A DNA stretch of 64,000 nt from Escherichia coli (GCF_036507355.1 NZ_AP027877.1), one strand, 5' to 3'; shown: positions 24,272-32,647, numbered from the stretch's first letter. Notes: generated from the sequence alone by a model not told the origin. Program-made: numbers and translations.

Positions 24272-24982
24272 TCAGGGCAGATTTTGCTCCTTCTTTGCAC
24301 TCAACCCGCCGTAATCATTTATCGCCCGCCAGGCAACATGACACGGTGCTATTGCCTGACACCAGCTTGTCTGACGCTGGCTTTTAGGCGGCACAACTCC
24401 CGCATTACTAAACGCTTTACCATTTACGCTCACCTGAATCAGGTTAATGTAGTAAGGCGTTGGGTTAGTGAGTTGTACACCCTGCGAATTCCGTGTCCAG
24501 CGTAATTGTTGATAAGCTTCCAGCGGGTCGCCCGGCAAACCTTCGGGTCGCCAGAACAGTTTAAATACCGAGCGCATCGCCACTTTTACGCTCTGATTTT
24601 CAACTTTGCCGGATGGCACGCTGGCAATGCTTAACTCAAATAGCGTTTCGCGATCCACAGGCAAGATGTCGCTTTCCGTTCTCAGCAAGCGCAACGTGCC
24701 TGTCGTACCGGGCTTCAGGAGAATAAGTGGCGGAGCGGCCAGTAATGGTGCTGGCACTGTCGACGCTTCACCCCCGGCCCAACGCGTTGGGCGGTTGATT
24801 TTACTGTTAATAAGCCAGGATTCCTGACTGGTATTAGTCAGTAAAATAGATATCGATTCTCTGTCTGCCGGAAAGATAAATCGCGTTCCGCCGACCACCA
24901 CTCCTGCCTGCAATTCACCCGCCACCAGCAGCGATAAAACGGCGAAAATCAAGAGCGCCAATCTGTTCCACGTATTAGTCAT
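24272..24982 (-). CDS. ycbF: Fimbrial (PapD-like) periplasmic chaperone YcbF
   Basis: 236 aa from MTNTWNRLALLIFAVLSLLVAGELQA (signal peptide), chaperone motifs; matches YcbF. Confidence 0.88.
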   Translation of the reverse strand: MTNTWNRLALLIFAVLSLLVAGELQAGVVVGGTRFIFPADRESISILLTNTSQESWLINSKINRPTRWAGGEASTVPAPLLAAPPLILLKPGTTGTLRLLRTESDILPVDRETLFELSIASVPSGKVENQSVKVAMRSVFKLFWRPEGLPGDPLEAYQQLRWTRNSQGVQLTNPTPYYINLIQVSVNGKAFSNAGVVPPKSQRQTSWCQAIAPCHVAWRAINDYGGLSAKKEQNLP

Positions 24983-25489
24983 AATGAAGTACAAATGTCG
25001 CGCTGGCATTCACTTTACCCGACTGCACATCGCTATTGACAGGTCGCAATTGCGCATAAAAGTTAATGGCACCTTACCGCTATGTAGGCTGTAGTCTTTA
25101 CTCGCCTGGTTAAGCGGAATCAATATCTTCGCATCATCCAGAATCGCAATTGCCAGCCCGCTGGCTGCATCCGTACCACTTTCAATGGACAACATTTCGC
25201 TCTGCACTCCGTCGGGGGTTCCTGAAAAGGTGACGTCAACCGTGCTGACATCTGTTCCGCAATCCTGCAAATTAATGATGAAAGATTTCTCCGGGCCATA
25301 ATTCCCATGAGAAAAACGTGTCAGTGAGACATCGCCTAACTGCACATTGATTTGCTTGCTATCCTGTGCCAGCACGCATGTATTACGGCGAAACGCTCCG
25401 CTAATGTTGACCGTGCCATCATGGGCAAATAGCTCACAACCCCCCGTTAATCCCAGTAAGAACAGAATCCAGATTATCCGTTTCAACAT
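24975..25489 (-). pseudogene. ycbV: Fimbrial-like subunit YcbV, apparently disrupted by a 1 bp frameshift near the 3' end
   Basis: N-terminal frame (MLKRIIWILFLLGLTGG...) ends early in ...LTFMRNCDLSIAMCSRVK; a second frame continues FYAQLRPVNSDVQSGKVNASATFVLHYD-stop (typical pilin C-terminus); span is 515 nt, one short of 516 nt for the expected 171 aa. Confidence 0.6.
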
Positions 25490-26050: not shown

Positions 26051-29269
<3,219 letters not shown>

Positions 29270-29284
29270 GGTAATGACTCCAAC

Positions 29285-29788
29285 TTACTGATAGTGTTTT
29301 ATGTTCAGATAATGCCCGATGACCTTGTCATGCAGCTCCACCGATTTTGAGAACGACAGTGACTTCCGTCCCAGCCTTGCCAGATGTTGTCTCAGATTCA
29401 GATTATGTCGCTCAATGCGCTGAGTGTAACGCTTGCTGATAACGTGCAGCTTTCCCTTCAGGCGTGATTCATACAGCGGCCAGCCATCCGTCATCCATAC
29501 CACGACCTCAAAGGCCGACAGCAGGCTCAGAAGACGCTCCAGTGTGGCCAGAGTGCGTTCACCGAAGACGTGCGCCACAACCGTCCTCCGTATCCTGTCA
29601 TACGCGTAAAACAGCCAGCGCTGACGTGATTTAGCACCGACGTAGCCCCACTGTTCGTCCATTTCAGCGCAGACAATCACATCACTGCCCGGTTGTATGC
29701 GCGAGGTTACCGACTGCGGCCTGAGTTTTTTAAGTGACGTAAAACCGTGTTGAGGCCAACGCCCATAATGCGTGCACTGGCGCGACAT
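29285..29788 (-). CDS. insB: IS1 InsB (transposase C-terminal part, expressed as InsAB' by -1 frameshift)
   Basis: 167 aa ...[54 protein letters not shown]...; A6C slippery motif (revcomp of gtttttt at 29725-29731). Confidence 0.9.
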
Positions 29789-29982
29789 CCGACGCCATTC
29801 ATGGCCATATCAATGATTTTCTGGTGCGTACCGGGCTGAGAGGTGGTGTAAGTGAACTGTAGTTGCCATGTTTTACGGCAATGAGAGCAGAGATAGCGCT
29901 GATGTCCGGCAGTGCTTTTGCCGTTACGCACCACGCCTTCAGTAGCGGAGCAGGAAGGACATCTGATGGAAATGGAAGCCAC
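29707..29982 (-). CDS. insA: IS1 InsA (transposition repressor)
   Basis: 91 aa [43 protein letters not shown]... matches InsA. Confidence 0.92.
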
Positions 29983-30037
29983 GCAAGCACCTTAAAATCA
30001 CCATCATACACTAAATCAGTAAGTTGGCAGCATTACC

Positions 30038-30296
30038 CAAAATTGACGTTGCGCGTATCTACAATTGTCTGATTCAGAACAATATCGACACGATAAACCC
30101 CTGGCGTTATTTTTTGTCCTTTTTCGAAACGAGACAAATCGGCCACCATTGAGGGATCATCTTTGAAAAAGGCTGGATCGAACCAGGTTTCAGCTTGTGC
30201 ATTGAACGCTGCCGACACAAACACCACCAGCCCACCAATAAACGATGGCACTCCACCAGAGCTTAACAGGCTGTGTTGTCGGTGAGTTCTATACAT
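30038..30296 (-). pseudogene. elfC: 5' fragment of usher gene elfC (signal peptide plus first ~86 codons), cut off by IS1
   Basis: MYRTHRQHSLLSSGGVPSFIGGLVVFVSAAFNAQAETWFDPAFFKDDPSMVADLSRFEKGQKITPGVYRVDIVLNQTIVDTRNVNF - typical usher N-terminus; continues in frame with 27112-29269 once IS1 and one repeat copy are removed. Confidence 0.88.
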
Positions 30297-30320
30297 CTCG
30301 CTCTCTTAACTGAAGACGAA

Positions 30321-31022
30321 TTACGATTTACAGTTGAGTTGCGGCGTTTCCGCCCCGTAGTCATTGATGGTTCGATACGTTACGCTGCTATTTTTGGCAC
30401 CCTTTGGCAGAGAGAATTGGTATTTATCAAAGGGGGAAATCATTTGATTTTTAACTACCTTTCCACCTATTTTCAGGTCTGTCAGGGTAATGAAATAAGG
30501 TGTTGGGTTACTGACCGTAACCATGTCAGCTGACGAAGTGCAACGCAGTTTCGCCGGAGCCTCGCCTAAGGGATACGCTAAACCTTTTGGTCGCCAGAAA
30601 AGTTTGATGACGCTTTGTGTGGCAATCTTCAGGGTATTTCCCTCTTCCCGCTTCGTTGTTGAAGGGACTGCCCGTACGCTAGTGAAGAAAAGGGTTTCTC
30701 TGTCTTTCGCCAACGGCGCACCAATGTACATAATGCGTAACAGATTCTCATTAGCCGGATTCAGCACAAATAGCGGTGGTGTAATAATAAAGTCTGCTGA
30801 TTTTTTATTATCTGGGGTCATCACCCATGACTGAATAAGATAAGGAACATCCGGACTGGTGTTACGTACACCCAGTGAAATTTGCTCTTCACCTTCTGAA
30901 TAAACAAGACGTGTTGCTGCAAGTCCAATCCCGCCTTTACCTGCCGCCCATGCGGATGAGCAGCTGAGTAATATTGCCGTTAAACTTACGGTCACAATTC
31001 CCTTTGTTATGCAAGTTTTCAT
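30321..31022 (-). CDS. elfD: Fimbrial periplasmic chaperone ElfD (YcbR)
   Basis: 233 aa MKTCITKGIVTVSLTAILLSCSSAWA..., PapD-like chaperone motifs; matches ElfD/YcbR. Confidence 0.9.
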   Translation of the reverse strand: MKTCITKGIVTVSLTAILLSCSSAWAAGKGGIGLAATRLVYSEGEEQISLGVRNTSPDVPYLIQSWVMTPDNKKSADFIITPPLFVLNPANENLLRIMYIGAPLAKDRETLFFTSVRAVPSTTKREEGNTLKIATQSVIKLFWRPKGLAYPLGEAPAKLRCTSSADMVTVSNPTPYFITLTDLKIGGKVVKNQMISPFDKYQFSLPKGAKNSSVTYRTINDYGAETPQLNCKS

Positions 31023-31125
31023 AAATAGTCACTCTTAAAAAATATGAATATCCCCTCCAGAACACTGGAGGAGTACAAATTAATAAAACAATTAATGAGT
31101 TCTATTAATAGGTAATGACTCCAAC

Positions 31126-31629
31126 TTATTGATAGTGTTTTATGTTCAGATAATGCCCGATGACTTTGTCATGCAGCTCCACCGATTTTGAGAACGACAG
31201 CGACTTCCGTCCCAGCCGTGCCAGGTGCTGCCTCAGATTCAGGTTATGCCGCTCAATTCGCTGCGTATATCGCTTGCTGATTACGTGCAGCTTTCCCTTC
31301 AGGCGGGATTCATACAGCGGCCAGCCATCCGTCATCCATATCACCACGTCAAAGGGTGACAGCAGGCTCATAAGACGCCCCAGCGTCGCCATCGTGCGTT
31401 CACCGAATACGTGCGCAACAACCGTCTTCCGGAGCCTGTCATACGCGTAAAACAGCCAGCGCTGGCGCGATTTAGCCCCGACATAGCCCCACTGTTCGTC
31501 CATTTCCGCGCAGACGATGACGTCACTGCCCGGCTGTATGCGCGAGGTTACCGACTGCGGCCTGAGTTTTTTAAGTGACGTAAAATCGTGTTGAGGCCAA
31601 CGCCCATAATGCGGGCTGTTGCCCGGCAT
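31126..31629 (-). CDS. insB: IS1 InsB
   Basis: 167 aa, about 90% identical to the other copy; A6C motif (revcomp of gtttttt at 31576-31582). Confidence 0.9.
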
Positions 31630-31823
31630 CCAACGCCATTCATGGCCATATCAATGATTTTCTGGTGCGTACCGGGTTGAGAAGCGGTGTAAGTGAACTG
31701 CAGTTGCCATGTTTTACGGCAGTGAGAGCAGAGATAGCGCTGATGTCCGGCGGTGCTTTTGCCGTTACGCACCACCCCGTCAGTAGCTGAACAGGAGGGA
31801 CAGCTGATAGAAACAGAAGCCAC
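31548..31823 (-). CDS. insA: IS1 InsA
   Basis: 91 aa [43 protein letters not shown]... Confidence 0.92.
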
Positions 31824-32072
31824 TGGAGCACCTCAAAAACACCATCATACACTAAATCAGTAAGTTGGCAGCATCACCGAGTAATTCATTGATTCAACAT
31901 CTAATGACTATCCAATAAATAAATATGCGTGATATATAAAGCCCTTTCTTTAGTTTATTTTCAGAAAAAGATACACAAAATTTATATTTGGCATTTTCTT
32001 GTCTCTCCGACAGACTGAGCGAATTGTTATCAATGTTAACAAAACAAGAACAATTGGTTATAAGGAGAGAGT

Positions 32073-32647
32073 ATGCGTGTCATCACCCTGGCGGGTAGTC
32101 CTCGCTTTCCTTCTCGCTCCAGCTCCTTGCTGGAATATGCGCGGGAAAAACTAAATGGCCTGGATGTAGAGGTTTATCACTGGAATCTGCAAAACTTCGC
32201 CGCGGAAGATCTGCTTTATGCTCGTTTCGATAGTCCGGCACTCAATACCTTCACCGAACAGTTGCAACAGGCTGACGGGCTGATTGTCGCCACGCCTGTG
32301 TATAAAGCCGCTTATTCCGGTGCGCTGAAAACCCTGCTCGACCTGCTGCCAGAACGTGCGTTGCAAGGCAAAGTGGTGCTACCGCTGGCGACGGGCGGTA
32401 CGGTGGCCCATCTGCTGGCGGTCGATTATGCCCTTAAGCCAGTTTTAAGTGCGCTGAAAGCCCAGGAGATCCTGCACGGCGTGTTTGCGATGACTCACAA
32501 GTAATTGATTACCATCACAAACCCCAGTTCACGCCGAATTTACAAACCCGTCTTGATACCGCGCTAGAAACTTTCTGGCAGGCATTGCACCGCCGCGATG
32601 TTCAGGTTCCTGATCTTCATTCTCTGCGAGGTAATGCCCATGCGTAA
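32073..32647 (+). pseudogene. ssuE: NADPH-dependent FMN reductase SsuE, apparently frameshifted (truncated at codon 143)
   Basis: Frame from ATG 32073 stops at 32502-32504 (...HGVFAMTHK*); SsuE C-terminus [52 protein letters not shown] continues in the +2 frame to 32645-32647; consistent with a 1 bp deletion near 32485-32495. Confidence 0.7.

Follow-up and report, generated by a model that had tools for sequence, protein, structure and literature searches.

An IS1F-type insertion within the elfC usher gene of a decaying elf fimbrial operon in Escherichia coli

Architecture of the elfC locus

In the present study we analysed a stretch of 64,000 nucleotides (nt) from Escherichia coli (GCF_036507355.1 NZ_AP027877.1), hereafter called the window and numbered along its plus strand, in which a complete copy of the insertion sequence IS1 lies inside elfC, the usher gene of the elfADCG-ycbUVF fimbrial operon. 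The window is collinear with positions 965,399 to 1,028,916 of E. coli K-12 MG1655, and the gene order ssuE-(elfA)-elfD-elfC-elfG-ycbUVF-pyrD is kept as in K-12, with elfD upstream and elfG-ycbUVF downstream of elfC. The ELF (YcbQ) fimbriae are laminin-binding, and elfC (ycbS) encodes their FimD-like usher (PMC3032704); the operon is repressed by H-NS and cryptic in laboratory E. coli (PMC5797941). The features of the interrupted gene, with lengths in base pairs (bp), are listed below.

29270..30037, minus strand: complete IS1, IS1F-type, 768 bp; 768/768 positions aligned to E. coli IS1 copies, the best at 99.9%
30015..30037, minus strand: left inverted repeat (IRL), GGTAATGCTGCCAACTTACTGAT as read on the minus strand; 20/23 positions match the right repeat
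29270..29292, plus strand: right inverted repeat (IRR), GGTAATGACTCCAACTTACTGAT; read in the sequence and paired with the left repeat
29707..29982, minus strand: insA, 91 codons, intact; from the list of open reading frames (ORFs) and its translation
29285..29788, minus strand: insB' frame, 167 codons, intact; from translation, overlapping insA
29725..29731, minus strand: A6C (AAAAAAC) programmed -1 frameshift motif at IS1 position 307; present in both IS1 copies of the window
29262..29269, no strand: target-site duplication, copy 1, CAAAATTG; corresponds to elfC nt 252-259
30038..30045, no strand: target-site duplication, copy 2, CAAAATTG; corresponds to elfC nt 252-259
30038..30296, minus strand: elfC 5' fragment (nt 1-259); 98.8% identical to K-12 elfC
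27112..29269, minus strand: elfC 3' fragment (K-12 nt 252-2601 less 192 bp); 97.9-98.3% identical to K-12 elfC

The initial annotation of this sequence had placed a complete 768-bp IS1 at 29270-30037, and these coordinates proved exact. The element agrees with the IS1F of K-12 at 762/768 positions (99.2%, six base differences) and with K-12 IS1A at 699/768. IS1 matches covering at least 80% of the element, annotated as 'IS1 family transposase', were found in 4,950/5,426 complete E. coli genomes, and the exact InsB sequence occurs on at least 1000 public contigs. Its 23-bp inverted repeats are imperfect, and both begin with GGTAATG. The InsAB' transposase of IS1 arises from insA and insB' through a -1 frameshift at the A6C motif, and the InsAB' fusion modelled from this copy scored 243.9 bits against the NCBIfam model NF033558 transpos_IS1 (cutoff 100). 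The left end of the element (30037) adjoins the 5' part of elfC while IRR lies at 29270, and IS1 is transcribed in the same direction as elfC. In its length, identity, ends, ORFs and target duplication, the element is assigned to the IS1 family by every sequence test applied. With K-12 IS1F it shares the 768-bp length, the GGTAATG...CATTACC ends, insA, insB' and the A6C site; by contrast, its insB' is open (167 codons), whereas insB7 of K-12 IS1F is annotated as a pseudogene, and it is flanked by an 8-bp duplication, whereas the K-12 copy has no flanking duplication. Its ends, insA, insB' and frameshift site are all intact, and this copy may be active in transposition.

Target duplication and the empty site

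The two junctions carry the same octamer. On the left, the sequence reads ...CTCCA CAAAATTG followed by the IS1 sequence GGTAATGACTCC (with the longer flank, GTTATCTCCA CAAAATTG and then GGTAATGACTCCAACTTACTGATAGTG), and on the right the IS1 sequence GGCAGCATTACC is followed by CAAAATTG ACGTTG (in the longer reading, CACTAAATCAGTAAGTTGGCAGCATTACC and then CAAAATTG ACGTTGCGCG). The duplication could not be extended to 9 bp on either side, and a given 8-mer would lie at both ends by chance with a probability of 4^-8, or about 1.5e-5. When the window was aligned to the corresponding K-12 locus (L001), window 31110-30038 fell on 4403-5475 and window 29269-28060 on 5468-6677, so that exactly 8 bp (L001 5468-5475, elfC nt 252-259) are common to both BLAST segments and K-12 carries the octamer once at the join. 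The same empty site was seen in six assemblies of close relatives (L013-L018), in which the flanks are 99.9-100% identical to those of the window: L013 and L016, read directly, contain the uninterrupted AACGTCAATTTTGTGGAGATAACG with a single octamer, and in L014, L015, L017 and L018 the BLAST segments overlap by the same 8 bp. Because K-12 and six near-identical relatives carry the octamer only once, the repeats at 29262-29269 and 30038-30045 represent a true 8-bp target duplication, which upholds the initial annotation on this point; moreover, since relatives with such closely matching flanks have the empty site, the insertion is recent and restricted to one lineage.

An 8-bp stagger is the less common one for IS1. 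Duplications of 8 bp also flank the IS1 copies at three other elf loci (L009, L010 and L023), and, as these copies are of the IS1A or IS1B type, the idea that the IS1 isoform decides between an 8-bp and a 9-bp duplication could be ruled out. IS1 has been reported to duplicate either 8 or 9 bp (PMC12428005).

Effect on the elfC reading frame

Removal of 29270-30045, that is, of IS1 together with one copy of the octamer, restores the open frame IVDTRNVNFVEITPEKGIAACLT / NVNFVEITPEKG, which is identical to K-12 ElfC in this region. The in-frame rejoining proposed in the initial annotation therefore holds, as does its remark that the rejoined stretch equals the FimD stretch in length, ElfC 25-127 aligning to FimD 35-137 with no gap; likewise, the alignment it had called for, against intact elfC and IS1, gave contiguous flanks and an element with IS1 ends and ORFs.

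In the interrupted gene, IS1 breaks codon 87 after its first base, within the PapC_N domain. The ORF at 30033-30296 (87 amino acids, aa) comprises 86 native codons and one glycine before a TAA stop supplied by the IS1 end. With respect to the domains of K-12 ElfC (PapC_N 39-182, Usher 201-777, PapC_C 789-851), the 5' fragment holds the signal peptide and about one third of PapC_N, and the 3' fragment has no signal peptide; an exact protein look-up of the 3' fragment from three candidate starts returned no match. The orthology of the gene is clear from its nucleotide identity to K-12 (97.9-98.8%) and from its place between ssuE and pyrD. The rebuilt protein (802 aa, against 866 in K-12) reached 1572.9 bits with NF011740, the usher equivalog model (cutoff 995), and K-12 ElfC itself can be aligned from end to end with structures of FimD, 6E14 and 3RFZ among them. 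A single continuous PapC_N, Usher and PapC_C polypeptide, as found in the K-12 usher of this gamma-1 chaperone-usher system, is not encoded here: the gene is split after nt 259 and broken at codon 87, and 64 residues of the barrel (488-551) are gone. As judged from its sequence, elfC in the window is a pseudogene derived from a member of the ElfC/FimD/PapC family.

A separate observation concerns L015 and L016 (3409-6010), which have no IS1 in elfC. Their usher gene is divided between two called ORFs (609 and 272 aa), which points to an independent frameshift and to additional decay of elfC within the clade.

The elfC-IS1 junction of the window was found in 0/5,426 complete RefSeq E. coli genomes, and a literature search yielded no description of this allele. 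It was nevertheless recovered from independent assemblies. L005 (SRR17480487) and L006 (SRR31122001) both end in elfC...GTCAATTTTG and then GGTAATGCTGCC, being 100% identical to window 31110-30009, and L019 (GCA_021425525.1) starts inside the right end of IS1 and is 100% identical to window 29322-20051.

Further lesions in the elf operon

The interruption of elfC is accompanied by other damage, the features of which are listed here together with those of the neighbouring genes.

28060..28066, minus strand: junction of a 192-bp in-frame deletion in elfC, at the 7-bp direct repeat TGGCTAC
30321..31022, minus strand: elfD, the chaperone gene, complete at 233 aa; flanked by the two IS1 copies
31105..31110, minus strand: elfA remnant, TAT TAA (last codon and stop), abutting the IRR end of the second IS1
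31111..31878, minus strand: second IS1, IS1A-type, 768 bp; 766/768 to K-12 IS1A, same orientation as the first, no target duplication
31879..31887, no strand: GAGTAATTC, surviving copy of a 9-bp target duplication, on the IRL-side flank of the second IS1
24975..25489, minus strand: ycbV with a -1 frameshift (T5 to T4) near 25061; 159 aa against 171
32073-32647, divergent from the elf operon: ssuE with a -1 frameshift (CC to C) near 32488; 143 aa against 191

The 192-bp deletion removes K-12 elfC nt 1462-1653, the BLAST segments overlapping by 7 bp, and with them residues 488-551 of the Usher barrel domain, so that the NF011740 match is split at residue 489. Its position at a 7-bp direct repeat is what slippage or microhomology deletion typically produces. 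A 331-bp query could not separate deleted from undeleted genomes; a 60-bp junction query, applied at a strict E-value, could, and it found the deletion junction in 0/5,426 complete RefSeq E. coli genomes. L019 shares this deletion. In view of the missing barrel segment, a working usher would probably not be regained even if IS1 were excised precisely.

The second IS1 is 91% identical to the first and lies 1,073 bp from it (30038 to 31110). It replaces 695 bp of the K-12 locus (L001 3708-4402): the promoter side of elfA, in the form of 161 bp at the elfA-proximal end of the ssuE-elfA spacer, and elfA itself apart from the final 6 nt. Accordingly, elfA gave no BLAST match in the window. In SRR17480487 (L005 and L012), the second IS1 is a simple insertion, with the 9-mer GAATTACTC on both sides of it and elfA intact; as this sample has the elfC-IS1 junction as well, the insertion into elfC is older than the elfA deletion. 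In GCA_905398635.1 (L020), the right end of this IS1A-type copy adjoins window position 27261, and elfA, elfD and nearly all of elfC are gone. The related assemblies thus present nested losses beside the IRR end of the second IS1, extending over 0 bp, over 695 bp or as far as window 27261. One-ended deletion of adjacent DNA from a fixed IS1 end is a classical and established activity of IS1, and three nested end points sharing one IS1 end make up the pattern expected of it; we infer from the sequences that this mechanism probably operated here. As in the classical cases, the second IS1 keeps its IRL flank and one 9-bp copy, and it is the DNA on the IRR side that is missing.

Beside this element we also note that positions 1-30 of L006 (SRR31122001), which shares the elfC::IS1 junction, hold the left end of an IS1A-type copy, fused to elfA near nt 47. 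This end is opposite in orientation to the second IS1 of the window and would correspond either to a separate insertion or to an inversion product.

As for the two frameshifts, sequencing error was rejected as their source: the ssuE lesion is also present in the independent short-read assemblies L011 and L012, and L020, whose sequence there matches the window at 100%, has an ORF (175 aa) equal in length to that of the frameshifted ycbV. Apart from this, ssuE is damaged in another way in L013 and L017, where an internal deletion (about 115-130 bp) leaves a 148-aa product.

Taken together, the operon has at least four lesions: elfC::IS1, the 192-bp deletion in elfC, the 695-bp loss of elfA beside the second IS1 and the ycbV frameshift. 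The whole elf operon has decayed, and not the usher alone. The initial annotation had dealt with the usher and its IS1; the second IS1, the loss of elfA, the 192-bp deletion and the ycbV and ssuE frameshifts are additional to it.

Extent of the damage in the window

The comparison covered 54 K-12 genes; damage is limited to ssuE, elfA, elfC and ycbV, and the other 50 look undamaged; elfD, elfG, ycbU and ycbF are all full length. The damage is local, being confined to the cryptic fimbrial operon and its divergent neighbour ssuE, and is not genome-wide decay as in Shigella. The paired IS1 copies and the frameshifts had raised the suspicion of a Shigella origin, which found no support: the truncated SsuE is an exact match to BED23017.1 (locus tag VEE46_27850), a protein assigned to Escherichia coli, 50/54 genes look undamaged, and the ycb pattern of Shigella flexneri 2457T differs, ycbQ being listed there as a pseudogene and ycbS not being flagged (PMC6854044). 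Over the 18 kb of housekeeping genes at 46000-64000, the closest of the 5,426 complete RefSeq E. coli genomes was 99.2% identical, from which it follows that the lineage of the window is not closely represented among them.

Elsewhere in the window, the gloC-aspC intergenic spacer lacks about 162-173 bp that are present in K-12 (984,321-984,482), the site being approximately 45077-45087, probably a repetitive-element polymorphism. The ompF gene (42603-43676) is 90.6% identical to that of K-12, with 27 gap positions and an open frame of 357 aa against 362, and ompA (8864-9916) is 96.8% identical, with 12 gap positions and an open frame of 350 aa against 346; both are ordinary allelic variants of surface proteins.

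Other IS1 insertions in the elf operon

The octamer occupied in the window has been hit by IS1 in another strain. In 19SZHZ886Rt (NZ_CP080080.1, L023 4536-5303), a 768-bp copy of the IS1A type (765/768) sits at the same octamer with the 8-bp duplication CAATTTTG, in the orientation opposite to that of the window; elfA and the barrel region of elfC are intact in this strain, and its flanks are 96.4-98.2% identical to the window. L003 (about 4260-4428) and L004 (4260-4358) have the same junction as 19SZHZ886Rt, again with an IS1A-type element. Since isoform, orientation and genetic background all differ, the insertion in 19SZHZ886Rt is independent of the one described here. Three more strains carry IS1 elsewhere in or beside the operon. 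AS19, a derivative of E. coli B (NZ_CP027430.1, L009 4836-5603), has IS1A after about elfC nt 387 with the 8-bp duplication CGCCAATG; L2_E1649 (NZ_LR882973.1, L002 5204-5971) has IS1 53 bp from the site used in the window, with a deletion reaching ssuB; and GF66.1 (NZ_CP172194.1, L010 6845-7612) has IS1B in the ssuE-elfA spacer with the duplication CATTTTCT. The IS1 insertions of 19SZHZ886Rt, AS19, L2_E1649 and GF66.1 are all independent events.

With about four independent insertions in the 2.6 kb of elfC, two would coincide under uniform targeting with a probability of a few in a thousand, which is a rough estimate. The octamer CAATTTTG (elfC nt 252-259) may be a genuine IS1 hot spot within an H-NS-silenced operon, used independently in at least two lineages by two isoforms in opposite orientations; from the sequences compared, we regard this as a tentative proposal, a little short of even in its chances. 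H-NS-bound regions have been reported as hot spots of transposition (PMC11335895); in that article IS1 appears in the reference list and not in the main text, and the elf operon is unmentioned. A connection between H-NS and the IS1 insertions in elf is put forward here as a hypothesis.

Discussion

The evidence leads us to conclude, with near certainty, that an IS1F-type IS1 transposed into the elfC usher gene of the cryptic elfADCG-ycbUVF operon, and that the locus is a decaying one, eroded mainly by IS1. The mechanism is a textbook one: InsAB' cut the target with an 8-bp stagger at CAATTTTG (elfC nt 252-259), gap repair produced the direct duplication, and translation from the elfC start now ends after 86 native residues and one glycine, at the TAA of the IS1 end. 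A functional usher presumably could not be made from the split gene, and the element probably also blocks the expression of the downstream genes elfG-ycbUVF.

The initial annotation had further held that the usher was inactivated by insertion and was not merely divergent. This interpretation is supported, elfC being 97.9-98.8% identical to K-12 and its frame being broken by IS1; what has to be amended is the role of the insertion as the single cause, since the 192-bp deletion is a second defect in the same gene. This leads directly to the question of whether IS1 struck a gene that was already dead, the 192-bp deletion or another lesion of the operon having come first and the insertion having been neutral. 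The rebuilt elfC still lacks residues 488-551 of the Usher domain, the only assembly showing the 3' side of IS1 (L019) has both lesions, and the split usher of L015 and L016, which have no insertion sequence in the gene, attests to other routes of decay in the clade. On the other hand, the deletion was not seen in any genome lacking the IS1, and its junction is absent from the 5,426 complete RefSeq genomes; elfC::IS1 is older than the elfA deletion, as SRR17480487 demonstrates; and L013, L017 and L018 have neither lesion and encode a full-length usher product of 861 aa. On balance, we consider a prior death of the gene unlikely, although it is by some distance the most serious of the alternatives to an insertion into a working elfC.

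Two other explanations of the arrangement carry far less weight. IS1 is multicopy and a frequent cause of misassembly, and the element at the elfC site in L003 is indeed collapsed and contains an N, so that a copy wrongly placed or collapsed into elfC had to be considered for the window as well; however, the perfect 8-bp duplication and the full 768-bp element, along with identical junctions in four independent assemblies (L005 and L006 for IRL, L019 for IRR, L011 and L012 for the second IS1), leave such an artefact with practically no chance. Only marginally less improbable is a recombinant element or a composite unit (IS1F-type, elfC', elfD, IS1A-type) that moved as a block. Two directly oriented IS1 copies do bracket the 1,073 bp from 30038 to 31110, but the DNA between them and the flanks on either outer side run collinear with K-12 in native order, the elfC copy has its own perfect duplication and the second copy ancestrally had its own 9-bp duplication, and the two copies are different isoforms, 91% identical.

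Nothing that we observed contradicts the insertion itself, and four points bear on its interpretation. The loss of usher function and the downstream block are both deduced from the DNA sequence; IS1 may be neither the first nor the decisive lesion of elfC, either order relative to the 192-bp deletion being compatible with the assemblies; a simple insertion gives the same end product as the formation of a cointegrate followed by its resolution; and the operon is silenced by H-NS and cryptic, so that the phenotypic effect may be nil under many conditions (PMC5797941). Transposition of the IS1F-type element into elfC, within an operon eroded chiefly by IS1, is still the interpretation that we retain.

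The event is an ordinary IS1 knockout, in which element, target gene and mechanism have each been studied in detail before. For annotation, it means that elfC, elfA and ycbV of this strain should be recorded as pseudogenes or as missing; to judge from the genes that remain, ELF fimbriae would not be assembled from this locus. Two points are mildly notable: IS1 has struck one octamer repeatedly, and the deletions beside an IS1 form a nested series. There is a modest evolutionary interest in that the related assemblies capture successive stages of IS1-driven erosion. If the octamer is truly a hot spot, then, together with at least three further independent IS1 insertions in elf, the operon would offer a natural case either of H-NS-directed 'transposon capture' or of recurrent selection against ELF fimbriae, and this would suggest that the target DNA, and not the IS1 isoform, sets the 8- or 9-bp stagger.
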